From: Nitrospirota bacterium
GTDB lineage: Bacteria; Nitrospirota; Thermodesulfovibrionia; Thermodesulfovibrionales; Dissulfurispiraceae
Length of the DNA: 64,000 nucleotides
Direction of reading: 5' to 3'
Assembly (NCBI GenBank): GCA_963790025.1
Contig: CAWBMP010000004.1
Location: forward strand, 1,472,001-1,536,000
The position numbers and the translations under genes are program-made. The notes under the pieces are model-generated. The model was not told the origin of the DNA, made no database searches, and saw only the letters and a program-made list of their open reading frames with translations. Positions within the stretch are counted from its first letter, which is position 1. Each line of letters begins with the position of its first letter. Below are positions 2,891-24,121 of the stretch, one piece after another.

Positions 2891-3532
2891 ATGGATTATG
2901 CGAAGCTCAGGGAGATGATGGTAAATACGCAGCTTATTCCGCGAGGGATTAAGGACATCAGGGTCCTTGATGCCATGAGAAAAGTCCCCCGCCATCTTTT
3001 CATGCCTGAGGTCATCCGTGAAAACGCTTATGAAGATAATGCACTCCCCATAGGCGAAGGGCAGACAATTTCCCAGCCCTATATGGTTGCCGTCATGACA
3101 GAACTTCTAGAACTCACTGGAGACCAAAAGGTGCTCGAAATCGGCACCGGTTCAGGCTACCAGGCGGCACTGCTGGCGGAGCTTGCACTGGAGGTATACA
3201 CGATAGAAAGAATTGGGCCCCTTGCCGATAGAGCGCGTGAGCTTCTTGCCGGACTCGGATATCGCAACGTAATTGTGTTGACGGGGGATGGTTCCAAAGG
3301 GATGGAGGAAAAGGCGCCGTTTGACAGAATAATTGTTACGGCTGCTGCACCTAAACTGCCTGAAATAATTCTAAAACAACTTAAAGAGGGCGGCATTATC
3401 GTTGCACCTGTGGGAGAAAGGTTTTCGCAAATTGTGGTCAAGGGACGCAAAAAAGAGGGGGCGCTTGTCGAGGAATTCCAGGTGCCCTGTGTTTTCGTCC
3501 CGCTTATCGGCGAGTTCGGATGGGAATCTTGA
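2891..3532 (+). CDS. pcm: Protein-L-isoaspartate O-methyltransferase
   Basis: GQTISQPYMVA, VLEIGTGSGYQAA, APFDRIIVTAA, FVPLIG. Confidence 0.97.
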   Translation: MDYAKLREMMVNTQLIPRGIKDIRVLDAMRKVPRHLFMPEVIRENAYEDNALPIGEGQTISQPYMVAVMTELLELTGDQKVLEIGTGSGYQAALLAELALEVYTIERIGPLADRARELLAGLGYRNVIVLTGDGSKGMEEKAPFDRIIVTAAAPKLPEIILKQLKEGGIIVAPVGERFSQIVVKGRKKEGALVEEFQVPCVFVPLIGEFGWES

Positions 3533-9195: not shown

Positions 9196-10692
9196 ATGAA
9201 AAAATGTGGCCTTTTAGCCGGAAGTGCACTTCTTTTAACCATGGTTTTATTGACGGCTGCATCGGTAAATGCCGATGCGACAAAGGTCTGGCCGCCGGAT
9301 CCTGAGAATAATACCGTTAATATTGTTGATAAACCTCCGGCGCTTCCTGTTACACCTCCACCCTTCGCTCAGGCCGTTCCAAACAAGACGATAGTTGCAA
9401 ACGAAATCCCAACCGACAAAAATGAAGCCTCTTCTTCTGTAAGTCCGCCTGCCCCTGGCCAGGCGGGCAAAGAAGCTGCGACAACTGTTCCGTCAGCCGG
9501 AGGAGAAAAACAGGTTGCCGTTACCGTGCCTGAAAAAGGCAAGGACGATAAAAATAAAGCCCTGTTCAATGATGATTACGCATCAAACAAAACGGCGCTG
9601 AAGGCCATAGAAAAAAGTGTCGGGATCTTTTCAGACAGGATAAAAGAAAGGTTCTCCGTCTATCTTGAAAGATCGTCGCGGTATATAGACATCATGCAGG
9701 AAATACTGAAAGGAAAAAACCTTCCTGAAGACCTCGTGTTCTTGCCTATTGTTGAAAGCGGTTTCAATACGGATGCGTACTCCAGGGCGAAGGCAGTGGG
9801 CCCATGGCAGTTTATTGCTTCTACGGGAAAGCGTTACGGCCTTGTAATTGATTGGTGGCGTGATGAACGGAAGGACCCGGTAAAGTCAACTATGGCTGCT
9901 GCGGATTATTTGAAGGACCTTTACAAAATGTTCGGTTCATGGAACCTTGCGCTGGCCGCATATAATGCGGGAGAGGGAAAAATTTCAAAGGCACTCAGGA
10001 AAAGCGATTCGGGTGATTACTGGTCTCTTCTCTCCACAAAGCAGATAAAGAATGAAACGAAAGAGTATGTACCGAGTTATATAGCTGCCACAATGATCGC
10101 TACTAGCCCTGAGGAATACGGTTTTAATAATCTGGATTACAGAGAACCTTTGGAATATGACGAGCTGACTATCAGTTCACCGCTCGATATAGATGTTATC
10201 GCAAAATGTGCCGAGTGCACAGTAAAAGAAATCAGAGAAATGAACCCCGAACTCAGGAGATGGAGTACACCGCCTAACATCCGGAACTACACGATAAGAA
10301 TTCCGGAAGGGAGCAAGGATATTTTTCTGGACAACCTCGCGTCCATACCAAAAGAGGAGCGGTTTACCGTTGGGCAGTATACCCTGAAAAAAGGCGACAC
10401 TATAAAAAATATTGCCAGGAAGACAGGCATACCGGCTTCAACCATTCTCGCAATGAATTCCCTGAGTGGACTGGGACATTTGAAGGCAGGAGATACGATA
10501 ACGCTTCCGCCAAAAGATAAATTCAGCCCCGATCCCGATGATAGGGCATCAATTGTTCAGAAAGTCGCATACAAGAAAAAATCGTCCGGCAGGCGTTCCG
10601 GCAAGCGTTCAGGCAAAAAGGGCAAGAGGGGTTCGTCAGGAAAGTCTCATAAAGCAAGGGGCAAGAGCAGAGTCAGGACCAAAAGAGCCTAA
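9196..10692 (+). CDS. Lytic murein transglycosylase (MltD-like, SLT + LysM)
   Basis: Signal peptide, IVESGF, AVGPWQF, AAYNAGEG, ETKEYVP, LysM repeat, Lys/Arg-rich tail. Confidence 0.92.
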   Translation: MKKCGLLAGSALLLTMVLLTAASVNADATKVWPPDPENNTVNIVDKPPALPVTPPPFAQAVPNKTIVANEIPTDKNEASSSVSPPAPGQAGKEAATTVPSAGGEKQVAVTVPEKGKDDKNKALFNDDYASNKTALKAIEKSVGIFSDRIKERFSVYLERSSRYIDIMQEILKGKNLPEDLVFLPIVESGFNTDAYSRAKAVGPWQFIASTGKRYGLVIDWWRDERKDPVKSTMAAADYLKDLYKMFGSWNLALAAYNAGEGKISKALRKSDSGDYWSLLSTKQIKNETKEYVPSYIAATMIATSPEEYGFNNLDYREPLEYDELTISSPLDIDVIAKCAECTVKEIREMNPELRRWSTPPNIRNYTIRIPEGSKDIFLDNLASIPKEERFTVGQYTLKKGDTIKNIARKTGIPASTILAMNSLSGLGHLKAGDTITLPPKDKFSPDPDDRASIVQKVAYKKKSSGRRSGKRSGKKGKRGSSGKSHKARGKSRVRTKRA

Positions 10693-10734
10693 GTGCTGAT
10701 GTCCCAAATTGTCTGTTTTAAGTTATAGTAATAC

Positions 10735-12024
10735 ATGCTGTTCAATGAGCTGGACATTCCTGAGGCTGTTCTTAAAGGTATTAAAGCTGCCCGGTTCTAT
10801 GAGTGCACTCCGGTACAGGCCGCAACACTTCCCGATGCGTTAAGAGGAAAAGATATAGCCGCCCAATCCCAGACAGGCACAGGGAAGACCGCTGCCTTTC
10901 TGATTGCTATTTTTTCTCGTATGCTTAAGGAGCCGCCTGGACCTGGCACGTCGCCGCGTGCCCTCGTTATCGCCCCGACACGTGAACTTGTAGCGCAGAT
11001 ACATGCCGAAGCCCTCATCCTCGGCCAGTTCACCGGCTTCAGGATCATCCCCATATTTGGAGGGATCGACTACAATAAACAACGCGATTCCCTCAGGGCA
11101 GGGGCCGACATTGTAATCGGGACTCCGGGCCGTCTTATTGATTATCTTAAACAAAATGTCTACAGCCTTAAAAAAACCGAATTTCTCGTGATAGACGAAG
11201 CCGACCGCATGTTCGACATGGGTTTCATCAAAGACCTGCGTTTCCTGCTGCGAAGGATGTCATCCTATAACAAGCGACAATCCATGCTTTTTTCCGCTAC
11301 GCTGTCCTACCGTGTCATGGAGCTATGCTACGAACACATGAACCTCCCTGAGAGGGTCTCCATCACTCCTGAACAGGTCACAGTTAAGAAGGTCGAGCAG
11401 GAACTCTACCACGTGGGAATGTCGGAAAAGCCTGGCCTCCTTCTGGGCATATTGCGGCGCGATGGGGCCGACCGCGTCCTGATCTTTACAAATATGAAAA
11501 TTACTGCTGAGCGGCTGGAAAGACTGCTCAAGGCAAACGATATAAAAGCTGCCGTTATAACCGGTGATATACCTCAGGCGAAGCGCACTGATATCCTTTC
11601 CCGCTTCAAGGAAGGGAAGATTCCCGTGCTGGTAGCATCGGACGTGGCGAGCCGAGGGCTCCATATAGAGGGGGTCACGCATGTAATCAACTATGACTTG
11701 CCCCAGGACAGTGAAGACTACGTACACCGGATCGGCAGGACCGCCAGGGCAGGAGCTGAGGGCAAGGCAATAAGCTTCGCATGTGAGGAATATGTCTATG
11801 CCCTTGAGGACATAGAAAAATATATCAAAGAGAAGATACCTGTAGTTCCGATTGAAGACCACCTTATTGTAAAAAACTACAAGCGGCCCGCAGCGGTCTC
11901 CGGCGGGAAAAAATATTTCGCGTCCTCTTCAAAACGACCCCGCAAACAATCCTTAGGGGAAGGCCCGCGGCCAGGCAAAAGGGAACATGCCGTCAGGAAT
12001 CAACGCTCTAAAAAAGGCGTCTAG
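10735..12024 (+). CDS. DEAD-box RNA helicase (RhlB-like)
   Basis: Q motif, SQTGTGKT, PTREL, DEAD, SAT, HRIGRTAR. Confidence 0.95.
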   Translation: MLFNELDIPEAVLKGIKAARFYECTPVQAATLPDALRGKDIAAQSQTGTGKTAAFLIAIFSRMLKEPPGPGTSPRALVIAPTRELVAQIHAEALILGQFTGFRIIPIFGGIDYNKQRDSLRAGADIVIGTPGRLIDYLKQNVYSLKKTEFLVIDEADRMFDMGFIKDLRFLLRRMSSYNKRQSMLFSATLSYRVMELCYEHMNLPERVSITPEQVTVKKVEQELYHVGMSEKPGLLLGILRRDGADRVLIFTNMKITAERLERLLKANDIKAAVITGDIPQAKRTDILSRFKEGKIPVLVASDVASRGLHIEGVTHVINYDLPQDSEDYVHRIGRTARAGAEGKAISFACEEYVYALEDIEKYIKEKIPVVPIEDHLIVKNYKRPAAVSGGKKYFASSSKRPRKQSLGEGPRPGKREHAVRNQRSKKGV

Positions 12025-12027
12025 ACG

Positions 12028-12702
12028 TTACAGCCGTGCTTTTGCGTCATTGAACAGGGGGGATTTCGGGAACCTGGTAACGAGTTCTTTATATTTGCCT
12101 TTAGCCTCGTTGGTCTTGCCCATTGATTCCAGTATCTTGCCGCTTTCAAGCAGCGCCATGTCCTGCAAAGGGGCATCCTTGATCTTTGAAAGATTGCCAA
12201 AGGTTTTCAAGGCGTTATCCATATCCCCCTTTCTTACGTAACCCATCGCCATCTTATAATAGGCCAGAGAGATAATTTTTTCATTTGAGTACTGGCTTGT
12301 AAGCTCGCTTAGCGCCTTGAATCCCTCGTCGAAATTGCCAAGTTCATAGCAGCAGCTCGCTATATACAGAAGGACAGATGGGTTCTTTTTTGCCGCGTAG
12401 GAAGCCTTGAATTTTTCCAGCGCATTTTTAAAACGGTCCTGCGGGGAAGCATATGCCGCAGTGCTTGACCCGCTCAATATTTTATATCCCTCATATTCCA
12501 TCTCCTCTGCTTTGGCGGACTGTGCACGATTGTAAATAAAAAATGAACCGACTGATATTATTATCAGGCCACATATGATAAAGCCAAAAACGAGAGTGCG
12601 CTGCCGTTCTTTAAGCTTCTTGCGTATATCGGTAACGCTTTCGGCGATGGTGCTTTCATTTTCAGTTTTTTTGCTCACTCTCTTCTTAATGGGTTTGGGC
12701 AT
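12028..12702 (-). CDS. Membrane-anchored TPR protein (YfgM-like)
   Basis: Basic N-terminus, single TM helix, TPR-like helical repeats. Confidence 0.75.
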   Translation of the reverse strand: MPKPIKKRVSKKTENESTIAESVTDIRKKLKERQRTLVFGFIICGLIIISVGSFFIYNRAQSAKAEEMEYEGYKILSGSSTAAYASPQDRFKNALEKFKASYAAKKNPSVLLYIASCCYELGNFDEGFKALSELTSQYSNEKIISLAYYKMAMGYVRKGDMDNALKTFGNLSKIKDAPLQDMALLESGKILESMGKTNEAKGKYKELVTRFPKSPLFNDAKARL

Positions 12703-13365
12703 CTATTTCCCTCCTGGTTTTAGCGCCTTTTCAACAAGTGTGCGTGCATGGTGAAAAATATTCTCAACTGCCTGAGCATCTATCCCGGCAGCAAGAAGAA
12801 CACGTTCTGCAAAATCCTTTGTGATGAGGTCTGACGGAGAATGGGCATCGGTATTTACAGTTAACGGAATCCCCAGTTCCATCGCCCGCCGCGCCACATG
12901 TCCGTTTGAGAGACTGTGTCCTTTTCTGGCTGTTATCTCCAGGGTTATTCCCTTATTTCGGGCAAGCAACAGGTCCTCGTGAGATATTAGGCCCGGATGG
13001 GCGAGAATATCAGCTCCTCCCTCAATAGCCGCCCTGTTTGTGCCTTCAGCCACCGGCTCCACTATTGTCTCTCCGTGGACAACTATTATTTTTGCTCCGA
13101 GTCTTCGGGCTTCTTTTATCATGTCCGGTATAAGAGGCGGCGGCACATGAGTAATTTCAGCTCCTGCAAGCACCGGAATAGGGAGATAGGAACGCAGGCT
13201 TTCGATTAGCTTTACGATCCGCGGAATGATCAGGTCAACATTCGACTGGTCCATGTGGTCGGTAATAGCAATGGCGCTGTACCCCTTTGCAGCGGCCCGG
13301 CGGATAAGTTCAGCCGGAATAAGTTCTCCGTCGCTGAACAAACTATGGGTATGCAAATCTATCAT
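12703..13365 (-). CDS. PHP-domain protein (histidinol phosphate phosphatase-like)
   Basis: DLHTHS, ITDH, GAEITH, VVHGE, LAHPG, TDAHS motifs. Start MIDLHTH at 13365. Confidence 0.88.
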   Translation of the reverse strand: MIDLHTHSLFSDGELIPAELIRRAAAKGYSAIAITDHMDQSNVDLIIPRIVKLIESLRSYLPIPVLAGAEITHVPPPLIPDMIKEARRLGAKIIVVHGETIVEPVAEGTNRAAIEGGADILAHPGLISHEDLLLARNKGITLEITARKGHSLSNGHVARRAMELGIPLTVNTDAHSPSDLITKDFAERVLLAAGIDAQAVENIFHHARTLVEKALKPGGK

Positions 13366-13487
13366 TGTACAGTGTAAAACATTCAGGGGAAATGAGGCAA
13401 ATGTAAAAAATTGCATATTGGTGTACTTTGTAATAAAATGATTATTACCGATGCGGGGACTGAAATAATATCACGGAGGTTTGAAAA

Positions 13488-13832
13488 ATGCCCATTATTG
13501 AGTACGCAGGATTAAAAATTACTATCGATGATGAGGGTTATCTTCTCAACAGCAAGGACTGGAATGATACAGTCGCGCACGCCTTGGCTGCTCACGAGGG
13601 TGTTGATGAACTGACAAAAGACAGGCTGGACATTATACGGTTTATGCGCGAGTATTATGAGAAATATAACTTTTTCCCAATTACACGCGCCGTTTGCAAG
13701 AACGTTCATCTCTCGAAGGATTGTTTCAGCGAGAAATTTCTCGATCCACTCAAGGCATGGAAAATAGCTGGACTTCCTAAACCCGATGAGCATGTAATAG
13801 CCGATTTGCGGGGAGAGGGCGGGGTAGTCTAG
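13488..13832 (+). CDS. TusE/DsrC/DsvC-family protein lacking the C-terminal cysteines
   Basis: DDEGYL..W, IIRFMREYY, KIAGLPKP. RBS GGAGG. Confidence 0.85.
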   Translation: MPIIEYAGLKITIDDEGYLLNSKDWNDTVAHALAAHEGVDELTKDRLDIIRFMREYYEKYNFFPITRAVCKNVHLSKDCFSEKFLDPLKAWKIAGLPKPDEHVIADLRGEGGVV

Positions 13833-13897
13833 GCGCATTGTTCAGAGCGTCAAAACCACGACACTCGCAGTGCCCGTTGTTCTGCAGGCATTATGAC

Positions 13898-13927
13898 TTG
13901 AAAACATTGCGTTCCAATTGGTATATT
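13898..13927 (+). promoter_or_regulatory. Putative sigma70 promoter of tRNA-Leu
   Basis: TTGAAA-18 bp-TATATT ending 10 nt before the tRNA. Confidence 0.5.
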
Positions 13928-13937
13928 TAATATTGTC

Positions 13938-14019
13938 GCCGAAGTGGTGGAACTGGTAGACACGCACGTTTGAGGGGCGTGTGGGGCAACCTATGCGGGT
14001 TCGAGTCCCGCCTTCGGCA
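13938..14019 (+). tRNA. tRNA-Leu(GAG), CCA not encoded
   Basis: Acceptor GCCGAAG/CTTCGGC, anticodon arm CACGT-TTGAGGG-GCGTG, long variable arm, T-loop GGTTCGAGTCC. Confidence 0.97.
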
Positions 14020-14050
14020 TTTTTCTTTTCTTGCATATTCATATGCGTAC

Positions 14051-14110
14051 ACAATTAAGTTCTTACTTAAACAATAAAGTCTTTACTTAACCAATTAAGT
14101 TCTTACATTT
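14051..14110 (+). repeat. Three tandem 20-bp TnsB-type binding sites
   Basis: acaattaagttcttacttaa / acaataaagtctttacttaa / ccaattaagttcttacattt. Confidence 0.85.
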
Positions 14111-14232
14111 CGCATCGTAAATTTCACCTCGGATTGTTTGCAAGTTCCGGAGCAAACCTGCTACTCGGTGATGTATTAACCTGAAACCGAGAGGAGAGCC
14201 CTTTCTGGTAAGGATGCGTCCACCCTGCTATA

Positions 14233-14349
14233 CGCGCGGCTGACATCCTGTCAAAGACGTTGAATGCCGATCGTAACATCTATTTGTGGCGATTTTGGGG
14301 TGAAGGGAAATGTAAACAATATAGACCTGACCCTCAGTTCTCTCTCACG
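14233..14349 (+). repeat. 117-bp inverted repeat, left copy
   Basis: Reverse complement of 19116-19232 with one mismatch. Confidence 0.95.
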
Positions 14350-14362
14350 CAGGAGCAACAGC

Positions 14363-15085
14363 CTATGGTTTCGGAGTAAAAGAGTATAGCGTATATGCAC
14401 ACGGTATCACGCCAGTATCCAGTCGAAGATCAATTTCCGGCAGTTTGTCAATATCAGAAAGTTGGCCGTTTGGTTCTGCATAGATCTCCGAAGCAAAAAC
14501 ATCCTGCCTCCGGAATGCCGAAAATCGCAGGTAAAGGAGATTCTCCAACTCATTATTTCTCGTATCAAATACCCTTAACCCTTTGGCTTTAACATGTTCA
14601 TTCGTTGCAAAGACTGTCTCAAAATGTTTGTTAATATCCAAAACAAACAAGGCGCCATTAAATTTTATAACTCTCCATAGCTCATCGGAAATCTTTAGCA
14701 GGTCAGCATCGCTGGAAAAGCAGTCAAAAACATTGGAACAAAGAACAATATCAAACATACTATTTTCAAAAGGTATTTCCAGAATTGATGCTACTTGAAA
14801 GTTCATGCTTTGGGGAGACATTCTTTTGCAGATGTCAATTGCTTTCTCGCTTATATCAAAACCATAACAATTCTCGGGCCTTGTGCGGAGTTCGGAAAAA
14901 AATCTCAGCTTTTCACCACCGGCGCACCCGGCTTCGAGTATTTTATATGTTGAAAGCTCGGTTTTACCCAGCATTATCATCATTCCTATCATGTATTTCC
15001 ATACCCGGTAGTTATTAAAAAGTCTGTAGAGATCCGCTAATCCCACCGGTAGTGAGCCATCCTGCCCGTATTCGAAAGTCGCCAT
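14363..15085 (-). CDS. Class I SAM-dependent methyltransferase
   Basis: ILEAGCAGG motif I, GFDIS, IPFENSMFDIV. Confidence 0.85.
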   Translation of the reverse strand: MATFEYGQDGSLPVGLADLYRLFNNYRVWKYMIGMMIMLGKTELSTYKILEAGCAGGEKLRFFSELRTRPENCYGFDISEKAIDICKRMSPQSMNFQVASILEIPFENSMFDIVLCSNVFDCFSSDADLLKISDELWRVIKFNGALFVLDINKHFETVFATNEHVKAKGLRVFDTRNNELENLLYLRFSAFRRQDVFASEIYAEPNGQLSDIDKLPEIDLRLDTGVIPCAYTLYSFTPKP

Positions 15086-15283
15086 TTTAAAATACCTCTC
15101 TTGTAGATTTTAGATTGACCATGCAGTCCTTTTTTTATCTTTCCTGCTACTTAAAATAAGTTACTTTCAACAAAGCTGTATGCTTATGGTTACAGCATGT
15201 ATTATACCAGACAATTTGTGGCAGCTTTCAGAAGGGAGGGCAGTGGGCTACTTTGAATTAAGAAGCTATGATATACTGTGGGT

Positions 15284-16252
15284 ATGACAACATTGGCAGC
15301 CTTATTAACAAAGGATGCGCTGATAATGGGCTGTGATAGCTTAGGGTCTGTAACTAGGCCATTCGTTGATCCTCTTGACTTGATGGATTACTTTGAAAGA
15401 ACCGCCCATGGCTTTGAGCAGAAAGTAGATAGCAATAATAAACCTATAATGAGTATTGACGATATCTTTAACAAAACTCGCGATATCCCTTATAATCATA
15501 TGACTTATGTCGATAAGCTGTTTTCGTTAGAGCCTTTACCTATGGGTATTATGATTACTGGTATCGCATCTATTGGAGACTATACAATTAAAAATTTGAT
15601 AAATCAGTTTATGGGTAAGGAGCCCATCTTTAAAAATAAAGGCAAATCAAAGAATTATACAGTTAGTTCGATAGCGAATAAGATATTGAAATTTATGAAA
15701 ACACATTACGATGCTGAGTACGGAAGTGGCCAAACCAAACAATCACTGGAAATGATGATAGGTGGTTATGATCTACAAAAACATATTCCAACTGTACTTA
15801 GAATACATGTGCATGAAAATAAAGTAGAAAAAACCTTAAAAGATTTTGGTATAGTATTTGGCGGACAAATGACTGAGATTCAGAGAATCGTGTTTGGCAC
15901 AGATGATTTCAACAGATTGAAGCTAATGGTAAGAAGTGATAAAATTTTGAACACATATTATGATGAAGTTACAACTTTTTTGAGGAACAACAACATTAGC
16001 ATTGATATTCCAAAACCGGACACAAAAAACAAACATAATTTTTTCCAAGGATGGGATATCAATGGATTTGACGCTTTTTGGGGTGATTTTTCAGAAAAAA
16101 ATGCCATTGAATGCGTTAAATTCTTTATAGATGTCATGGTTAAGACACAATTATTTAGTGATACAATGCCTACAGTCGGTGGGGATATTCATTTGGCAAA
16201 AATTACTAAAGCTGAAGGATTCAAGTTTTGTTATCAAGAAAAGGAGGGATAG
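15284..16252 (+). CDS. Proteasome-type Ntn-hydrolase-like protein
   Basis: Starts M-T-T (N-terminal Thr), MGCDS, downstream K (VDKLF), ITGIA, C-terminal PTVGGDIHLAKIT. Confidence 0.7.
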   Translation: MTTLAALLTKDALIMGCDSLGSVTRPFVDPLDLMDYFERTAHGFEQKVDSNNKPIMSIDDIFNKTRDIPYNHMTYVDKLFSLEPLPMGIMITGIASIGDYTIKNLINQFMGKEPIFKNKGKSKNYTVSSIANKILKFMKTHYDAEYGSGQTKQSLEMMIGGYDLQKHIPTVLRIHVHENKVEKTLKDFGIVFGGQMTEIQRIVFGTDDFNRLKLMVRSDKILNTYYDEVTTFLRNNNISIDIPKPDTKNKHNFFQGWDINGFDAFWGDFSEKNAIECVKFFIDVMVKTQLFSDTMPTVGGDIHLAKITKAEGFKFCYQEKEG

Positions 16253-16254
16253 AC

Positions 16255-16434
16255 ATGCAAAAAAGCTTGAAATACATAACTGCCGAAGAAATGAATATGT
16301 ACATTAAATATGCAGAGTATTTTAATGTTAAGGGTTTTTGTGCATCGACTTTAAATCGGTCAAATATACAGATTGATAAATTATTACAGCCGATGAATAA
16401 AGCTATTAGTAAGAAAAAAGTTACAAAGAAATAA
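16255..16434 (+). CDS. Small basic hypothetical protein (59 aa)
   Basis: AGGAGG RBS; starts 2 nt after the Ntn-hydrolase stop. Confidence 0.5.
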   Translation: MQKSLKYITAEEMNMYIKYAEYFNVKGFCASTLNRSNIQIDKLLQPMNKAISKKKVTKK

Positions 16435-16448
16435 GAGTCAATAAAGGA

Positions 16449-17273
16449 TTATAGTAAATTTATAATTTCTTCAATCTCCCAAACATGATCTGATATTCCT
16501 GCCTCCATGGCTGGGGTAACTCTCAATGTTTGGTGAATCCGGCAAAAGTTGTAATGCATGAAATGCAGAGCCACAGCACATTCAAGGTTCTCGACCTTCT
16601 TTGAAAAAGCGTTTGTCAATCTGGTAAACCTTCTCATGCTCATGCGCATTGTGAGGTTCTGCCGTTCCACATAGCTTGTAGAAATGTGTTTCTTATCGGG
16701 ATTGCCTTTTATATTTGCTGTTCGTGTTCCAGTGCAAATGGCGGGGCTGTACTTCTTTTGATTGTCAGGACTGTCATTGCCATATAGTTTAACGAGCATG
16801 GCATAATCAATATCACTGCCGAATGCATTTTCAACGGCATCGACATATACCCTGTAACCATCTGTAGTTAATTGGACACGGTGTTTTAATCTGCTTGCAA
16901 GGTCATTTATAAATGCCTTTGCCGCCTGTACGCTACGATCTCCGACATACCAGTTAGCTATAAGCGTTGAATCAGCGCATAAGGCTGTCCACGTCCACAC
17001 GTCACCGTAACCAAACTGCCCTTCAAATTCGGGTGGCACATTCTTATCCTTTGCATAACAGAAAGACCATATTTCGTCACACTGGATACGCTTGCAGGTA
17101 ATTTGACGGACGAACCTATTGTGATACTCCTTACAGACTTTGCCGAGATCAACAAGAAGCTTCAATACCGTCTTCTTTGCAGCGCCAGTCATTCTACAAG
17201 TGGCACGGATAGAATTGCCTTCAACTAAGCAGCTTACTAGTTGCGCTCTTTTCCTTGTATCTAACTGGCTCAT
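16449..17273 (-). CDS. IS1-family DDE transposase
   Basis: N-terminal HTH (EGNSIRATCRMTG), QCDEIW, TTDG, YVERQNLTMR, RRFTRLTNAFSKK. Confidence 0.92.
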   Translation of the reverse strand: MSQLDTRKRAQLVSCLVEGNSIRATCRMTGAAKKTVLKLLVDLGKVCKEYHNRFVRQITCKRIQCDEIWSFCYAKDKNVPPEFEGQFGYGDVWTWTALCADSTLIANWYVGDRSVQAAKAFINDLASRLKHRVQLTTDGYRVYVDAVENAFGSDIDYAMLVKLYGNDSPDNQKKYSPAICTGTRTANIKGNPDKKHISTSYVERQNLTMRMSMRRFTRLTNAFSKKVENLECAVALHFMHYNFCRIHQTLRVTPAMEAGISDHVWEIEEIINLL

Positions 17274-17279
17274 GATTTT

Positions 17280-17308
17280 ATTATACTTGACCGCTCAAGC
17301 ATTGTCAA
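17280..17308 (-). promoter_or_regulatory. Consensus sigma70 leaderless promoter of the transposase, with operator palindrome
   Basis: TTGACA-17-TATAAT, 6 nt before ATG. Spacer holds CTTGA-gcgg-TCAAG. Confidence 0.8.
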
Positions 17309-17422
17309 GTAAAAAATGTCGACATGAGACACCTTCGTAAGCATTACTTGACAAACTGCATGGTCAACTTGATAAGATAGCTAGTAAACTTGACGATATA
17401 ATGTCGTTATGGAGGCCATCGT

Positions 17423-18655
17423 ATGACAGATCAAGATTGGGATCAATTAGCTATTGATGCCGGGAAAGTTTTTACCCCTGCGGCACCTATAGATGAAGAG
17501 CGTTTATTCGCAGGTCGACTTGAACAACTACGACAGGTTATTGATGCAATAAATCAGAAAGGACAACATGCAATTGTTTTCGGGGAAAGAGGCGTTGGAA
17601 AAACTTCTCTAGCGAATATTATCGCTACAAAAATAAGTGGTGCCTTAATCATAGCTCCTCGTATTAATTGCGACAGCACTGATACTTATTCAAGTCTTTG
17701 GAAAAAGATATTTGACCGTATTAATTTGACAAAGGAAGTTCACAAAATCGGGTTTACTAATGGTAGCAACATTGAACCCATAAATATTTGTGAACAATTT
17801 GCTGAGAGTGATATTTCTACTGATAACGTTCGTTCATTACTTACTTATCTATCTGAACATTTTTTGATTATCCTTATCATTGATGAATTTGATCGTATTG
17901 CTAAGCCCGAAGTAAGAGCAGCAGTTGCTGATACTATCAAAACATTATCAGATCATTCCATTGCGGCTACGATTGTCCTTGTTGGTGTCGCTGACAGCGT
18001 GAACGATCTAGTAAGTGAACATCAATCAATTGAACGAGCTTTAGTTCAGATTAGAATGCCCCGCATGTCCAATGATGAGCTTTATAAAATAGTAGACAAT
18101 GGATTGAACATATTAAAAATGTCAATTGATGATGACGCAAAAAGAGAAATAGTTTTATTGTCCAGAGGATTGCCACATTATACTCACCTTCTATCTTTAT
18201 ATTCAGCAAGAGAGGCTCTTGATGGAAGGTCATTGAATATCAATATTGGACATGTGGAATCTGCTATTTCCGAAGCACTGCAAAAAGCCCAACAAACGAC
18301 TCAGACTGCATATCATAAGGCAACAATGAGTGCAAGAAGAGACAATTTATTTTCCCAGGTTTTGCTTGCATGTGGCCTTGCAAAGACTGATGATTTAGGT
18401 TATTTCTCTGCTGGCGATATTAGAATCCCTTTATGTGAAATCATGGGAAAGTCATATGATATTGCTAGTTATTCTAGACATTTATATGAATTTTGTGAAC
18501 CAGCGCGCGGTCCAATATTACAAAGAACTGGAGTCAAACATCGATACAAATTCCGTTTTATTAATCCTTTGATGCAACCGTTTATTATTATGCAAGGTCG
18601 GGTAACAAATCTTATTGATAGACAGAAGTTAGAATCTATAAAAAATAAGTACTAA
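17423..18655 (+). CDS. AAA+ ATPase (Cdc6/Orc1- or STAND-like) with C-terminal helical/wHTH region
   Basis: FAGR, Walker A GERGVGKT, Walker B IIDEFD, SRGLPHY. RBS GGAGG. Confidence 0.85.
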   Translation: MTDQDWDQLAIDAGKVFTPAAPIDEERLFAGRLEQLRQVIDAINQKGQHAIVFGERGVGKTSLANIIATKISGALIIAPRINCDSTDTYSSLWKKIFDRINLTKEVHKIGFTNGSNIEPINICEQFAESDISTDNVRSLLTYLSEHFLIILIIDEFDRIAKPEVRAAVADTIKTLSDHSIAATIVLVGVADSVNDLVSEHQSIERALVQIRMPRMSNDELYKIVDNGLNILKMSIDDDAKREIVLLSRGLPHYTHLLSLYSAREALDGRSLNINIGHVESAISEALQKAQQTTQTAYHKATMSARRDNLFSQVLLACGLAKTDDLGYFSAGDIRIPLCEIMGKSYDIASYSRHLYEFCEPARGPILQRTGVKHRYKFRFINPLMQPFIIMQGRVTNLIDRQKLESIKNKY

Positions 18656-18900
18656 GATTTAGGGATTTTAGCCCATCTTGTATGAGCAGCTTTAATAGCA
18701 ATATGCTTTCTCGATTCCGCAGATAGCTTCTCAGCGCGCGCTTTGCCGCCTTTCAACCCTCCAAGTCTGCCAAGGGCAACTGCGGCAGGATTCTTTTCTT
18801 TGGCAGGCTGTTCCGGTCGGGAACGGTCAGAAGTTACAGCTTCAACTATTGATGCGGCGATCTGGTTTACATCTTCGGTTTTCTTTCTCTTTCTTTCCAT
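18652..18900 (-). CDS. Small basic IS1-associated protein (KNPAAVALGRLGGLKGGKARA family)
   Basis: Characteristic GRLGGLKGGKARAEKLS...AAHTRW motif; lies inside the TIRs. Confidence 0.8.
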   Translation of the reverse strand: MERKRKKTEDVNQIAASIVEAVTSDRSRPEQPAKEKNPAAVALGRLGGLKGGKARAEKLSAESRKHIAIKAAHTRWAKIPKS

Positions 18901-18905
18901 GCTTT

Positions 18906-18934
18906 AGTGTAGCATGACCGTTCAAGCATATCAA
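18906..18934 (-). promoter_or_regulatory. Leaderless promoter of the small basic gene, with the same operator
   Basis: TTGATA-17-TACACT, 5 nt before ATG. Spacer tgcttgaacggtcatgc matches the transposase promoter spacer. Confidence 0.7.
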
Positions 18935-19115
18935 GATACCGGAAATTCAAAGTAGCCAACTACCGAAGGGAGTTACATTACGGAAACACTTTTTAACAAA
19001 TTTCTGTGTAAATCATACTCATTTTCCTTTTTCAAGCCCTCTGGATTCGGAGATGCAACTAATAAACCACTTCCGAGGATTACGGGCTTTAGGAGGTGAT
19101 GTCTGTTTCAGCGAA

Positions 19116-19232
19116 CGTGAGAGAGAACTGAGGGTCAGGTCTATATTGTTTGCATTTCCCTTCACCCCAAAATCGCCACAAATAGATGTTACGATCGGCA
19201 TTCAACGTCTTTGACAGGATGTCAGCCGCGCG
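19116..19232 (-). repeat. 117-bp inverted repeat, right copy
   Basis: Reverse complement of 14233-14349. Confidence 0.95.
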
Positions 19233-19270
19233 GGTTATCAGGGTGTACTCGGGGGAAATTCGGCCCTAAA

Positions 19271-19412
19271 AAGTATGAACTTTATTGTTTGCTGTTTTAA
19301 GAGCTTTATTGTTTTCCTCTGAAAAAAAGTAAGAACTTTGATGTCTTGGGCTTTTTTGTCGTATTATATGAATCAACAGGTTAGGTTGTCATTTTGTAGA
19401 GACTTTATTGTC
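19271..19412 (-). repeat. Four spaced TnsB-type sites (distal Tn7-like end)
   Basis: rc sites aacaataaagttcatactt (19271-89), aacaataaagctcttaaaa (19295-313), gacatcaaagttcttactt (19327-45), gacaataaagtctctacaa (19394-412). Confidence 0.8.
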
Positions 19413-19710
19413 TACAGATAATTAAATAAGTTACATACCTGAAACTCTCATTATTACCGTGAACAAAATAATCCCTTCGCTATTAAGAAAAAGTTCTGAT
19501 TTGCGAGAGCAGAAAGCGACAGTTTTTATGATAAAAACGGTCGCTGTCCCTATTTGTTCTTTTACCGGCATGACAGCGTAACACCCGCCGCGACTCCAGG
19601 GAATAGGCCTGATGCGTTTTTTATTTTGTTTTTTATTGACATAATATTTTTATGGGTTTAACATAGATCAGTAGTTCATAACTTTTTTGAGCTAAAAGGA
19701 GGTGAAGTCA

Positions 19711-19818
19711 ATGGATGATGGCCCTGGAAACAGTAGTAACATAACATCGGCCGTGCGGATGTCTGCGCGAAGGGGGACCTTCTGTTCATTGCTCGCCTCT
19801 ATGTCAACTCTTCTCTAA
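19711..19818 (+). CDS. Possible 35-aa small ORF
   Basis: Strong RBS AAGGAGGTGA ahead of ATG; no recognisable homology. Confidence 0.3.
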   Translation: MDDGPGNSSNITSAVRMSARRGTFCSLLASMSTLL

Positions 19819-19907
19819 TCCCGTCCGCTTTCTTCTTCACAAGACTTCGCCGGCCAAAACACGTAGCGGTTTTCGCTGTTGCTATTGAATAATGGAGGTG
19901 AAGTGTC

Positions 19908-20228
19908 ATGATCTACATCCACAGTGTACCCGGAAGGGTAAGGATCAAAAATGATGTATTGAAAGGGAATTCCGGAGTCGCTGATGAAATTCGGAAAGCG
20001 CTGAGCACCATCAGGGGCATCGGTACGGTGGATATTAATCTTACTACCGGCAGCATACTTATCTACTATAACCCTAAAGTTACGAATTGTGAGGAAATCA
20101 CGGTGTTCCTGGAGAAAAGCGGAGTCTTTGACCGCTCCAGGGCCATCACTAACGATGAGTATTTCAGGGGTAAGGTCTCTAAAGTGGTGGAGACAGTGTT
20201 CATGTCGGTAGCAGGAGTGCTTGTTTAA
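19908..20228 (+). CDS. HMA2 (heavy-metal-associated domain 2) protein
   Basis: IHSVPGRVRIK and NLTTGSILIYY motifs; RBS GGAGGTGA. Confidence 0.85.
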   Translation: MIYIHSVPGRVRIKNDVLKGNSGVADEIRKALSTIRGIGTVDINLTTGSILIYYNPKVTNCEEITVFLEKSGVFDRSRAITNDEYFRGKVSKVVETVFMSVAGVLV

Positions 20229-20294
20229 AAAGAGCTGTGTAAAGCTTCACTTGGGCCGCGCACAAATAGCTCAGGCAATTATTCGAAGCTATTT

Positions 20295-20651
20295 GTGCGC
20301 AGTTCCTTAAGGCCTAAAGTATTGACAGGTTTAAAGCAAAACATTATTATTTGGTTTGAATATAAGAGGAAAGAGTTGATTTATGACACTATCCTGCGAA
20401 TCGTCTGCCGGAGCAACTCTGAACAGCAAATCAGAACACTCTTCGTTCAGGAGGTCCTCAAAGAATCGTTTTTGCTGCAGTCCATAGAGAGCGAGGACAT
20501 CCAGGGGACCGATACGGTGGAAGTCAAAGCATTCATTCTTGCGAACGGGCAACAGGATGCGATGATGGAAAAAATAGTCGGCATGCTGAGCCTGCACCAG
20601 GCTGTCAGCGCGGCAAGCTGGAAGCATGTTTCACAGGCTATGGAAGAATAA
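20295..20651 (+). pseudogene. C-terminal ACT-like fragment of MgtC/SapB
   Basis: LRIVCRSNSEQQIRTL...LQSIESED...EKIVGMLSL..AVSAASW resembles the MgtC C-domain. TM domain absent; next to mgtA. Confidence 0.6.
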
Positions 20652-20663
20652 CTGACCCGGACC

Positions 20664-21455
20664 TCATGCGGAGGATTTCGGGGCGGCTTTTATCGCCAGG
20701 CAATCATAAACGACACGATCGCCGTGATAGGTTACCACGCCTCGTTTTACAACCCTCCATCCGCCATTATGGAAAATACCGCGGGCAGAGATGTCCTCAA
20801 TAAGGCCTGATGCGGAATCCAGGTATTCCACAAGGCTGATATTTTGAGCAAGCACAACAGTCTTCATGTTTGGACCTGTGACTAACATCAAAGGTTCAAC
20901 TATGAGGTTTGACAGGTCCGGAGCGGGCATCTCGACGCTGGGCCTGGCCTGAAGCTGGATCATCCTGGCCCGCGTATCGGGCGCGACAGTTTCTTTTGTT
21001 GTGCTGATCAGATCCAGCAGGTAGTCACGGACATCATTCAACTCTTTCAGAAGGCGCAACTTTTCTATTTCGGGATAGGTGGTCAGGGCCCTTGCGAGAA
21101 TGGAAACCTCCCTGATGTAATGATTGCGCTGGTTTGACGGTACGAGGTACATTACAACGACCGATACGGGTATTCCGTCCGGTGCCCCGTAGTTTATGCC
21201 CTCAGGACTCCACCCTATGACGCACGAGAGATCTTCCTCAAAAGGTACCCGCACATGTAGGCAGGCCCATCCTTTTCCCAGGGCCGTGTTGGTGGACGTC
21301 TCTTTTGCCATGGCCGGCCCGACCACATCTGTGCCGGTCGGGATCGAGGGAATGGCTTCCAATATATGCGCCAGGAACTCCAGTGCATCATCCTTATTAT
21401 TGTCGGGCAGTTCGATCAATCTCCCTTCTTGCAGGGCATCCAACAGGGTGTCCAT
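20664..21455 (-). CDS. PTS EIIA-domain protein with C-terminal extension
   Basis: KETSTNTALGKGWACLH (phospho-His position kept), GINYGAPDG. Starts immediately after the mgtA stop. Confidence 0.85.
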   Translation of the reverse strand: MDTLLDALQEGRLIELPDNNKDDALEFLAHILEAIPSIPTGTDVVGPAMAKETSTNTALGKGWACLHVRVPFEEDLSCVIGWSPEGINYGAPDGIPVSVVVMYLVPSNQRNHYIREVSILARALTTYPEIEKLRLLKELNDVRDYLLDLISTTKETVAPDTRARMIQLQARPSVEMPAPDLSNLIVEPLMLVTGPNMKTVVLAQNISLVEYLDSASGLIEDISARGIFHNGGWRVVKRGVVTYHGDRVVYDCLAIKAAPKSSA

Positions 21456-21457
21456 AA

Positions 21458-24121
21458 TCAATCACCTCCAAAACGATTAAAGAACCAGGTCTTTATGAAA
21501 TGCGTAAGAACGGAATAGGAAACAAGGAATGAAGCAATCCATGCCCAGTAGATAGGGGGCAACGGTAACATTCCGAGCGGTTTTGCGAATGGTGAATACG
21601 GCAGCCAGGCGCCGATTGCCATGACAGTCAGTGTAGTCAATGTCATATGAACAGACGCGCGACTCCCGAAGAATGGGACCCGTCTGGTCCTGATGATATG
21701 CACGATCAATGTCTGGGTCAGGAGCGACTCCACAAACCATCCGGTCTGAAAAAGCTGTTCAAGCCCAACTTTTTGTTGTGCGGCAGCAGCCTGATTGACA
21801 AAGAAACTGCAATGGAAAAAGAACCACATCAACGCGAAGGTGGCGTAGTCGAAGATAGAACTTACCGGTCCGATGAAGACCATGAAGCGCTTGATATTGT
21901 CGATGTTCCATTTAAGAGGTTTGGCTATAAGTTCCTCATCCACGTTGTCGGTGGGGATGCCGGTCTGGGATAAGTCGTAGAGAAGGTTGTTCAGCAGAAC
22001 CTGGACAGGACGCATGGGCAGGAATGGCAACAAATAGCTTGCACCGACCACGCTGAACATATTGCCGAAATTGGAACTGGCTCCCATGCGGATATATTTG
22101 ACAATATTGGCAAAGACCTTTCGGCCCTCGATGATCCCCTCTTCAAGTACCAACAGGCTTTTCTCCAGCAGTACTATGTCTGATGACTCTTTGGCAACGT
22201 CTACCCCGGAGTCTACGGATATCCCCACGTCGGCGGCCTTGAGGGCCGTTGCATCGTTGATGCCGTCTCCCATAAACCCTACCACGTGCCCTTTGCTCCG
22301 CAAGTCACGTACGATTTGCTCCTTCTGCGCCGGAGTCAGCTTGACAAAGGCATCCGTATCCTGGACCACCTGTGAGAATTCCTCAGGGGAAAGCCGCGAC
22401 AGTTCCACGCCCGAGACTGTCCGGTCCGCAGCAAGCCCCACGTCCCGGCAGACTTTTTGTGTAACCAGTGCGTTGTCGCCGGTCAGAACTTTGAGTTTGA
22501 CGCCGGCATTCTTAAGAAGCTTCAGCGCCTCGGTCGCTGAATCTTTTGGCGGGTCGTAGAAAGTTATATACCCCAGAAGAACAAGTCCTTCTTCATCGCT
22601 GACAGTGAAGGAGGTTTTTTGGCGGGGGAACTCACGGTAAGCGATACCGAGCACACGGAAACCATCTTTATTGAGCCGATCGACCTCTTCGAAAAGGTCT
22701 TGCCGGATCAGATCAATAAGAGGGTAGACCTCATCGTCCATCTGGTACTGGCTGCAGCAGGAGTAGATCTCTTCCACAGCCCCTTTGCAGATCAGAACAT
22801 GGTCACCCTCATAATCCACAACAACAGACATGCGGCGACGCTGAAAATCAAAGGGCAGCTCGTCAACCAGCTTGCAGTTGCCTACATATAGGTCGGAATG
22901 TTCGAGTACCGCGCGGTCAATCAGGTTGCGGAGACCGGTCTGATAATAGCTGTTCAGATAGGCGTAGTTCAGAACGTCTCCGCTCGGTTCGCCGGTTATA
23001 TCCAGGTGTTGTTTCATCACAACTTTGTCCTGGGTAAGGGTACCGGTCTTGTCTGTACACAGTATGTCGATGGCCCCCAGGTTCTGGATTGATGGAAGGC
23101 GTTTTACGATTACCTTTTTTTTGGACATGGTAAGGGCGCCCTTCGCAAGATTCACAGTGACGATCATAGGAAGCATCTCCGGAGTAAGGCCAACCGCCAC
23201 TGACAGACCGAACAGAAAGGCTTCAACCCAGTTCCCCTTGGTCATGCCGACAATAAGGAATACAGCAGAGACCATGACCACCATGAACCGGATCATGAGC
23301 CACGTGAAAGACCGGACCCCTATGTCGAAGCTCGTTTCTTCCGGGCGCGTTGCCAGGCGCTCGGAAATGGACCCGAAGATGGTCCGCGCCCCTGTGTTTA
23401 CAATTACACCGCGGGCTGTTCCGCTGGTTACCGTGCTTCCGAGAAAGCATGCGTTTGCCAGGTCCAATACAGTATGCTCTGGAGATGCGGAGGCATCAGG
23501 CGATTTTTCAACAGCCATAGCTTCACCTGTAAGAGCAGACTGGCTGATGAAGAAATCCTTGGCAGTAATCAGACGAAGGTCCGCGGGAATCATGGAGCCT
23601 GCATAGAGCAGTACAATATCTCCAGGAACTACCTTGGAAACCCTTACCTCGGTTTCCTTCCCGTCACGCAAGACCAGGGTTCGCGACTGCACGCGTTTCC
23701 CAAGGGCCTCGACAGCGAGATTTGATCTTCGATCAAGAATATAAGACAGCCCGACGCTTAGAACAACCATCGCACCGACAATGCACGCCGATACGATATC
23801 GTCCATGATACCGGAGATTATGGCGATCACAAGTAGCTGGACGACCAGCGGGCTTTTGCACCGTCGGAAAATATCACCCCAGAAGCCGACGCGTTTGGCC
23901 CTGGGCATTTCATTAGGACCATACTTTTCAAGGCGATGCTGGGCCTCCTCCGTGGTCAGACCGAGGGATGTAATGCCGAGTTCGGTCAGCACCTCTTGCG
24001 CAGGAAGCAAGCCGATTTTAATCAACAGGCGCTCGTGCTCCGTCATGGTACGGGGCGTCCTTAATTTCTGGGTTTCATCGATAGAGTCTTTTATCTTGGC
24101 GGGCAGGATACCATTTTTCAT
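21458..24121 (-). CDS. mgtA: Magnesium-translocating P-type ATPase
   Basis: TGEA, GLTPEMLPM, DKTGTLT, KGAVEE, GDGIND, KYIRMGASSNFGN, FQTGWFVES. Confidence 0.96.
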   Translation of the reverse strand: MKNGILPAKIKDSIDETQKLRTPRTMTEHERLLIKIGLLPAQEVLTELGITSLGLTTEEAQHRLEKYGPNEMPRAKRVGFWGDIFRRCKSPLVVQLLVIAIISGIMDDIVSACIVGAMVVLSVGLSYILDRRSNLAVEALGKRVQSRTLVLRDGKETEVRVSKVVPGDIVLLYAGSMIPADLRLITAKDFFISQSALTGEAMAVEKSPDASASPEHTVLDLANACFLGSTVTSGTARGVIVNTGARTIFGSISERLATRPEETSFDIGVRSFTWLMIRFMVVMVSAVFLIVGMTKGNWVEAFLFGLSVAVGLTPEMLPMIVTVNLAKGALTMSKKKVIVKRLPSIQNLGAIDILCTDKTGTLTQDKVVMKQHLDITGEPSGDVLNYAYLNSYYQTGLRNLIDRAVLEHSDLYVGNCKLVDELPFDFQRRRMSVVVDYEGDHVLICKGAVEEIYSCCSQYQMDDEVYPLIDLIRQDLFEEVDRLNKDGFRVLGIAYREFPRQKTSFTVSDEEGLVLLGYITFYDPPKDSATEALKLLKNAGVKLKVLTGDNALVTQKVCRDVGLAADRTVSGVELSRLSPEEFSQVVQDTDAFVKLTPAQKEQIVRDLRSKGHVVGFMGDGINDATALKAADVGISVDSGVDVAKESSDIVLLEKSLLVLEEGIIEGRKVFANIVKYIRMGASSNFGNMFSVVGASYLLPFLPMRPVQVLLNNLLYDLSQTGIPTDNVDEELIAKPLKWNIDNIKRFMVFIGPVSSIFDYATFALMWFFFHCSFFVNQAAAAQQKVGLEQLFQTGWFVESLLTQTLIVHIIRTRRVPFFGSRASVHMTLTTLTVMAIGAWLPYSPFAKPLGMLPLPPIYWAWIASFLVSYSVLTHFIKTWFFNRFGGD

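Follow-up and report, generated by a model that had tools for sequence, protein, structure and literature searches.

A 5379-bp element bounded by inverted TAT...ATA ends, and inserted 22 bp after a tRNA-Leu gene of a Nitrospirota bacterium (GenBank assembly GCA_963790025.1), is very likely a non-autonomous member of the prototypic Tn7 clade, made up of transposon ends and foreign cargo and probably helped in trans. It lies at 14042-19420 of the window, the term used here for the whole stretch of 64,000 nucleotides that was analysed (contig CAWBMP010000004.1, positions 1,472,001 to 1,536,000), and it accounts for the 5.4-kb low-GC island that follows tRNA-Leu in this genome (38.7% G+C, versus 47.2% for the genome).

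Ends and flanks of the element

The tRNA gene, the two ends and the flanking pentamers are as follows, in window coordinates.

13938-14019, plus strand: tRNA-Leu gene (anticodon GAG), the presumed attachment-site gene (ARAGORN; Rfam RF00005, 51.3 bits)
14037-14041: left copy of the target-site duplication, ATTCA, the final 5 nt of the 22-nt spacer 14020-14041 (read from the sequence)
14042-14106, plus strand: proximal (packed) end, with the 8-bp tip TATGCGTA and three abutting 20-bp predicted TnsB-type sites
19273-19420, minus strand: distal (spaced) end, with four predicted TnsB-type sites and the tip ...AGATA at 19420
19371-19385: conserved CCTAACCTGTTGATT motif within the distal end
19421-19425: right copy of the target-site duplication, ATTAA, a 4/5 match to ATTCA

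The proximal sites (14051-14066, 14071-14086 and 14091-14106) have a spacing of 20/20, and those of the distal end (19396-19411, 19329-19344, 19297-19312 and 19273-19288) start 10, 77, 109 and 133 nt from the tip. From 14042 the tRNA-side end reads TATGCGTACACAATTAAGTTCTTAC, and the far end, taken as the reverse complement from 19420, reads TATCTGTAGACAATAAAGTCTCTAC. ACAATWAAGT begins at nt 10 in both. A first-pass annotation of this DNA had described that register, the TAT at both tips, the three abutting and four spaced sites, the insertion 22 nt past tRNA-Leu and the 4/5 identical flanks ATTCA/ATTAA, all of which can be read directly from the sequence.

The decamer occurs four times in the window, versus 0.21 expected, and none of 100 shuffles reached four. 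There are 25 copies of it in the whole 3.45-Mb genome, about chance level by estimate, and the 15-mer CAATWAAGTYYTTAC has four genome copies, three of them within the proximal end of the element. The motif is thus not a genome-wide transcription-factor site, which had been entertained at the outset. Scans for promoters (25 versus 17.6 +/- 4.2) and for terminators (4 versus 4.4) stayed at shuffle level. The right flank reads ATTAA followed by ATAAGTTACA, continuing ATAAGTTA..., and is homologous to the post-site sequence of the empty sites found in relatives. Two hallmarks of Tn7-like transposons are present, namely asymmetric ends with the packed one adjoining the attachment gene, and a 5-bp duplication (4/5 in the window, perfect in sister elements); another, TGT...ACA tips, is not, both window tips being TAT/ATA.

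Boundaries and orientation in related genomes

Boundaries were compared by a search of 40 relatives and a tRNA-anchored read-out in 10 genomes of the genus. At locus L022 a 1.09-kb sister element (11136-12222), with one open reading frame (ORF) of 277 aa, has TATCA on both sides. There, too, an intact tRNA is followed by a paralogous empty site, ...GTAATATCAATAGG..., in which TATCA occurs once, and the empty site of L027 reads ...TATCAATAAG...; both contain ...TATCAATA(A/G)G... once. The first-pass annotation had expected an empty site to have a single pentamer, and in these relatives a single one (TATCA) stands at exactly the proposed boundary. A 5.0-kb element (L055, 1587-6552) has a perfect CTACT duplication and a packed end 20 nt after tRNA-Ser. 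In L170 and L050, head-to-tail distal and proximal tips lie 5 and 4-5 bp apart, the arrangement that repeated insertion at a single position would give.

By manual count, TAT-tipped packed ends stand 22-23 nt after tRNA-Leu in six of the ten genus genomes (the window's own and those of L019, L020, L021, L022 and L023), and one in a further genus (L024) stands at that distance too. The packed end faces tRNA-Leu in all seven genomes, so that both site and orientation are specific. The interiors of the tRNA-Leu elements are unrelated, and these are therefore separate elements; their fixed distance and orientation, recurring across independent elements, point to targeted insertion after tRNA-Leu.

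Absence of transposition genes

No Tn7-specific gene was found in the element when its five large ORFs were compared with Pfam, NCBIfam and PADLOC, by phmmer with 21 Tns proteins, or by tblastn at E<=1. This bears out the earlier statement that no tns genes lie inside, with the qualification that an IS1-family transposase ORF and an AAA+ ATPase of weak TniB/TnsC likeness are present. The genome, which is 98.8% complete, gave 0 matches each to Mu-transpos_C, TniQ and TnsA_N, matches to rve solely below its cut-off, and no tblastn match with five Tns proteins at 1e-3; the TniB model gave generic AAA+ matches alone, and also matched all 14 control genomes. Mu-transpos_C and TnsA_N matched no control genome, with matches in relatives as the positive controls. 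Since element and genome contain no tnsB, tnsC or TniQ-TnsD, the element counts only as a non-autonomous derivative.

The 58 ORFs beside the genus ends include no tns gene. Three of the ten genus genomes hold tnsB and tniQ, some with TnsA-TnsB fusions. At least five other Tn7-like loci were observed in the genus (L074-L079), among them TnsA-TnsB fusions of 890 and 919 aa, a fusion of TniQ with HTH_17, and copies into which insertion sequences (IS) have broken. None of the 20 Mu-transpos_C loci fetched from across the phylum had clustered ACAATAAAGT-like sites, scattered single matches looking like chance, with a clustered-site filter that was too strict for the single distal site of L244 (described below). 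At another single-site locus, L232, the Mu-transpos_C protein matched none of the Tns proteins used. Among interior ORFs, 70 of 99 were profiled, those farthest from the ends being dropped, and the phmmer comparison took in every one of the 2991 ORFs in the loci with 100 aa or more.

Relatives carrying tns genes

The first-pass annotation had suggested a search for tns loci with TAT ends. Two were found (L036 and L244/L058), and none with these sites was found in the window's genome or genus. In L036, a contig of an Acidobacteriota metagenome-assembled genome (MAG), tnsA, tnsB, tnsC, one unassigned ORF and tnsD lie directly inside the end TATGTACGGACAATAAAGTC, 25 nt after glmS; the tip is given here in the TAT frame, an out-of-register TGT two bases in being also possible. 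In a Nitrospirota MAG contig (L244 and L058, their overlap checked), a 23.4-kb region extends from a packed TAT end, TATAAAGAAACAATTAAGTC, 11 nt after a TPP-enzyme gene, to a distal-type end, with no further end within the 23.4 kb. Genes for TnsA (277 aa), TnsB (651 aa) and TnsC (516 aa) lie 11-19 kb further in, together with two tnsD paralogues of 489 and 580 aa that are 33% identical to each other. The TnsB of this region is 38% identical to that of L036, versus 20-29% to the other Nitrospirota TnsBs compared, and its distal end aligns with that of the window, also across a conserved block, CCTAAC..TTGATT, that separates the first site from the second.

The same sites thus stand on two tns-bearing relatives, as expected of cognate sites in the prototypic Tn7 clade. 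Among the metagenome matches listed, at least ten loci have tnsA and/or tnsB beside ACAATAAAGT pairs, and a tblastn search of plasmids with the L036 TnsB returned 3700 records, the best at 52% identity.

TAT and TGT tips

As a control on the tips, metagenomes were searched with a two-site pattern that placed no constraint on the tip, which gave at least 118 loci. The in-register tips among the matches listed were TGT (47), TGA (8) and TAT (7), the remainder being scattered and mostly simple repeats; by these counts TGT is the norm for this site type and TAT a minority. In the genus, TAT stands on every one of about 12 ends obtained by BLAST or tRNA-anchored searches that did not impose it, and in the Nitrospirota flavour of ends, AAGTTCTTAC or AAGTTTCGC, TAT is the rule. 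Near-identical TGT-tipped ends occur as TGTCCGCACACAATTAAGT in L060, which compares with the TAT-tipped TATCCGCACACAATAAAGT of L021, and as TGTCTGGAAACAATAAAGTTTCGC in L188.

It had been proposed that the tips reflect altered TnsB terminal specificity rather than decay. The exclusion of decay stands, given that complete elements with perfect duplications have the change at each of their tips and that the genus ends are uniform, and TAT/ATA appear, from the sequences compared, to be the normal tips of this lineage, a lineage trait. The proposal of altered specificity is weakened. The TGT tip is typical of Tn7-like elements and not universal (PMC11406308, PMC9881144), hence not strictly defining; almost 20% of cyanobacterial tnsAB-fusion elements are non-TGT, and McCAST is bounded by TAC/GTA, where switching the ends to TGT had a modest effect (PMC9881144). 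Because TGT and TAT alternate among close relatives and other tips are tolerated, a changed TnsB specificity is unneeded, and tolerance explains the TAT tips equally well.

A separate end group, TGATAGGAAACAATTAAGTCTGTCGG, with TGA in the tip register, was observed at metagenome loci L118, L126, L144, L178 and L184, and also at L142 and L093; it fits published TGA/TCA-tipped elements.

Distribution and other attachment sites

When one genome per prokaryotic species was scanned for a pair of abutting sites with TAT, 29 loci were obtained, which span Nitrospirota, Acidobacteriota, Alpha-, Beta- and Gammaproteobacteria, Geobacter, Desulfuromonadaceae and one Christensenella. The packed end lies 3-30 nt from a tRNA or ORF 3' end in 17 of these 29 public loci, the targets being tRNA-Leu, Ser, Asp and Glu (at 19-23 nt), glmS (24-25 nt), a TPP-enzyme gene (11-15 nt) and several other protein genes. 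A scan of viral contigs gave nine loci, none with a TGT or TAT tip and none resembling a Tn7-type end.

The TPP-enzyme gene is also a target in the genus of the window. At L018 (about 3090-3165) a packed end 94% identical to that of the window over 71 nt lies 15 nt after this gene, adjoining an IS21 (IstA/IstB), and in the window's genome a solo distal-type TAT end (C4:1243983; L033:7983, minus strand) lies 640 bp after the orthologous gene. A third packed end of this genome was observed at C4:1206207-1206270 (L031, about 10207-10270); it begins TGTAGGAT about 20 nt after a PIN/PhoH gene, has three GCARTAARGTTTT sites spaced 21-22 bp, and is followed by AbiU2-like, Schlafen/AlbA_2 and IS200-like genes. 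No partner for it was found within 1195000-1260000. In L060 (9793-10040), tRNA-Asp is followed at about 105 nt by a TGT-tipped packed end and at about 313 nt, 208 bp further on, by a TAT-tipped one of the same orientation.

The distal-end architecture is common to the window element, five other transposase-less ends and the tns-bearing region, and all 7 of the 7 ends aligned have a CCTAACnnnTTGATT block between the first and second distal sites. The reverse complement of window 19371-19385, AATCAACAGGTTA, fits the consensus for integration host factor, WATCAANNNNTTR; the fit is poorer in others of these ends. A conserved stretch of about 36 nt lies inside the packed ends of L039 and L170 and nowhere else among the sequences examined.

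Cargo and the internal repeat

The interior of the element contains the following features.

14233-14349, plus strand: left arm of a 117-nt inverted repeat (99%), holding the site-like AAACAATATAGAC
14363-15085, minus strand: class I SAM-dependent methyltransferase, 240 aa (Pfam Methyltransf_11, 3.8e-15; PADLOC mad2, 4.3e-11)
15278-16252, plus strand: ORF of 324 aa with no family match (no Pfam match at E<=1; none in NCBIfam or PADLOC)
16449-17273, minus strand: IS1-family transposase ORF, 274 aa (NCBIfam transpos_IS1, 2.9e-15, below its cut-off; Pfam DDE_Tnp_IS1 weak)
17423-18655, plus strand: AAA+/STAND-like ATPase, 410 aa (AAA_22, 1e-10; TniB, 30.4 bits; PADLOC mad8, 1.2e-8)
18652-18900, minus strand: ORF of 82 aa, no family
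19116-19232, minus strand: right arm of the 117-nt inverted repeat

The IS1-family ORF is a separate mobile gene and not a tns gene; no flanking inverted repeats around it were obvious on reading the sequence. The ATPase is 24% identical over 184 aa to one TnsC (tblastn, E 2e-5) and was matched by none of six TnsC queries at 1e-4 (phmmer), and its likeness to TniB/TnsC appears to be generic only. The methyltransferase and the ATPase match, at the domain level only, two PADLOC models (mad2 and mad8) of one candidate defence system. At the DNA level the methyltransferase gene shares 79-83% identity with genes of two genomes of the genus, a similarity that sets in precisely where the 117-nt repeat stops on its inner side.

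The arms of the repeat, which the first-pass annotation had not mentioned, sit 191 and 188 nt inside the two tips. A third copy in the same genome (C4:1206370-1206490, 98-100% identical) lies about 170 nt inside a different packed end, and the outer parts of the three ends that bear the repeat do not align with one another. The repeat is absent from the 40 relatives searched, and neither strand of it folded better than its shuffles (z 0.07 and -0.03). Within it lies AAACAATATAG, a variant core that the fourth site of L018 also has. The repeat may serve as an inner binding site or a recombination module, or may be a recent gene-conversion tract. Rfam at E<=1 over 13500-20000 gave no structured RNA other than the tRNA.

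Proposed mechanism and alternative explanations

A TnsD-type selector is proposed to bind the tRNA-Leu gene and, through TnsC, to direct a TnsA/TnsB transposase to insert 22 bp downstream, which would leave the packed end facing the tRNA and make the 5-bp duplication. The proteins would most probably come from a related autonomous element. We infer a TnsD-type choice of site because of the tns-bearing relatives and published TnsD proteins that target tRNA-Leu (PMC9881144), and the two TnsD paralogues of the tns-bearing Nitrospirota relative would fit the use of two targets in the genus, one being tRNA-Leu and the other the TPP-enzyme gene at its 3' end. With the helper absent from the genome, the element would now be stranded. 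The earlier description of a natural mini-Tn7 mobilised in trans holds for Tn7-family membership, the lack of transposition genes and the fixed position and orientation; movement in trans is likely but unproven, the genome containing no helper. It is favoured on grounds of economy, since there are several small elements, complete in themselves, that carry no tns remnant whatever.

Alternatively, an autonomous Tn7-type transposon could have lost tnsABCD by deletion in place, leaving a decaying remnant that never moved in trans. This is possible, though rather unlikely. It gains from the existence of relatives with tns genes, from solo ends in the window's genome and from the rearranged state of the window copy (the 117-nt inverted duplication, the IS1-family gene, a missing inner proximal site and the 4/5 duplication), but at least two other complete tns-less elements, of 1.09 and 5.0 kb, keep both ends and perfect duplications, and no tns fragments beyond generic AAA+ similarity were found in four elements (tblastn, E<=1). 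Repeated, independent, clean deletions that spare both ends would also be less economical than movement in trans. A third tns-less end pair, in L048, lies 3.7 kb apart and has no matching duplication. Another view, that the TAT tips are inactivating G-to-A mutations and the elements immobile fossils of TGT elements, would explain the rarity of tns genes. In keeping with it, TGT is the commonest tip in the metagenome control and TAT rare, and an Oxalobacteraceae-type TAT end (L054/L150) has TGT look-alikes (L119, L164 and L186). With flanks of at most 10 kb, and with related genomes that are not independent samples, tnsA or tnsB was found beside 7 of 14 TGT-tipped packed ends having at least 2.5 kb of interior (among the metagenome matches listed), versus 1 of 23 such TAT ends at the genome loci and 0 of 2 among the metagenome matches listed. 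Decay is nevertheless very unlikely, since random decay would spread tip variants and none such occur in this lineage, while complete elements flanked by perfect duplications share the change at their two tips, every genus end found without imposing TAT has it too, and the tandem insertions point to repeated activity.

It is extremely unlikely that a tyrosine-integrase island occupies tRNA-Leu here with the repeats as its arm-type sites, or that the repeats form a transcription-factor array. The tRNA-Leu of the genus is indeed also used by islands that duplicate the tRNA 3' end (L022, Phage_integrase ORF at 9758-11053), yet the element has no integrase, no tRNA 3' repeat is present on its far side within window 12001-22000, its boundary is set 22 nt past the tRNA and has a 5-bp duplication, the two tips bear the repeats in inverted orientation, and the motif is not genome-wide. 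The integrase-island explanation was therefore rejected for the window element, though in a relative this tRNA does receive such islands. The partial copies of the tRNA 3' end seen in L022 and L023 come from tyrosine-integrase islands and not from TAT elements. In L022 (5256-15300) such islands stand in tandem at the same tRNA-Leu, with genes for an integrase, an aspartyl protease and a Mrr-type endonuclease; every island has left behind a tRNA 3' remnant of 23-27 nt, and the site copy of one is the empty site used above.

Several observations weigh against a non-autonomous Tn7-clade element helped in trans. The window's own duplication is imperfect, its proximal end lacks the extra inner site that most relatives have about 25-30 nt past the packed sites, and the 117-nt inverted repeat points to later rearrangement. 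In the tns-bearing Nitrospirota region the flanking pentamers mismatch (AGAAC versus GAAGG) and the register of the distal tip is off by one base, so the 23.4 kb may be composite. No helper with window-type sites was found in any of the ten genus genomes. In the three that hold tnsB and tniQ, the 12-19 kb fetched around these genes has no ACAATAAAGT-like site cluster, and the sole end read near the Tn7-like loci of the genus is of a different, TGT-tipped type, TGTGGAATTAAGCATAACATTGCG, after tRNA-Ser. The L036 TnsB query matched 2 of 201 genomes of the order, and weakly. Among 15 genomes that host TAT ends, 12 have no Mu-transpos_C protein and three have at least one, most of these being MAGs in which absence of a gene may reflect incompleteness. 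Finally, since flanks were at most 10 kb and tnsA lies 11 kb from the packed end in the tns-bearing region, the one in 23 given above understates autonomy.

A broader view is that the TAT elements are parasitic, cargo-carrying Tn7 "satellites" that far outnumber rare masters in Nitrospirota and some Proteobacteria, spread to several attachment sites via masters with multiple TnsDs, and are adapted through the ATA-3' end. In one part of this view, ATA-3' in place of ACA-3' would alter donor processing by TnsA/TnsB, for example by favouring retention of the donor copy. As a whole it is speculative and is considered unlikely.

Significance

Tn7-family elements are under study as tools for precise DNA insertion. 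Tips other than TGT, attachment sites at tRNA genes and multiple TniQ/TnsD selectors have already been published (PMC11406308, PMC9881144), and TAT may already figure among the non-TGT tips of supplementary figure S5B of PMC9881144. Natural ends-only elements of the Tn7 clade were not found in the titles and abstract openings of the literature on non-autonomous Tn7-like elements, and "nonautonomous" occurs 0 times in PMC8649781. Surveys usually start from transposase genes, and ends-only elements are for that reason invisible to them. The elements described here would mean that ends-only, cargo-bearing Tn7 derivatives occur naturally, are frequent in one phylum or more and insert at several sites, by tRNA genes as well as protein genes. 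A coherent lineage in which the near-universal TGT/ACA is replaced by TAT/ATA is also a natural test of the penultimate C in TnsB chemistry.

Comparison with known systems

Defective Tn402/Tn5053 derivatives, such as class 1 integrons, likewise fall within the wider TnsB/TniA family; they have kept their ends, lost their transposition genes and are helped in trans. They differ from the window element in belonging to another subfamily, in their res-site targets and in having 25-bp simple inverted repeats.

In Tn7 itself the right-end sites are 22 bp and overlap, whereas those of the window abut at 20-bp intervals. The window element further differs in its lack of tns genes, its TAT/ATA rather than TGT/ACA tips and its tRNA-Leu target. 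In both, the sites are packed at the end beside the target gene and spaced at the opposite one, a 5-bp duplication is made, and insertion falls about 20-25 bp downstream of a conserved gene, same-site relatives lying 24-25 nt after glmS. Both also have an 8-bp tip and, after it, a TnsB site whose core ACAATAAAGT stands at nt 10, and the published Tn7 right-end primer tgtgggcggacaataaagtcttaaactgaa has the same 8-bp tip frame, core and register as the window ends (PMC1475584). Laboratory mini-Tn7 resembles the window element in having two ends around cargo and depending on proteins in trans (PMC1475584); the window element is natural, with lineage-specific TAT tips and no helper in the cell.

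The element was also considered as a CRISPR-associated transposon and rejected as such, there being no cas family among its ORFs and the only Rfam match in 13500-20000 being the tRNA; no short-period CRISPR-like array was present among the repeats found in 13800-19700. It nonetheless shares with the type I-B2 PmcCAST and the type I-D McCAST a likely TnsD-directed insertion at a fixed distance after tRNA-Leu (PMC9881144, PMC11406308), which for McCAST is 29 +/- 1 bp (PMC9881144). Those systems have TnsA-TnsB fusions, CRISPR modules and TAC/GTA tips, whereas the relatives described here have separate tnsA and tnsB genes of the Tn7 clade, and the insertions lie 22-23 nt after the tRNA.

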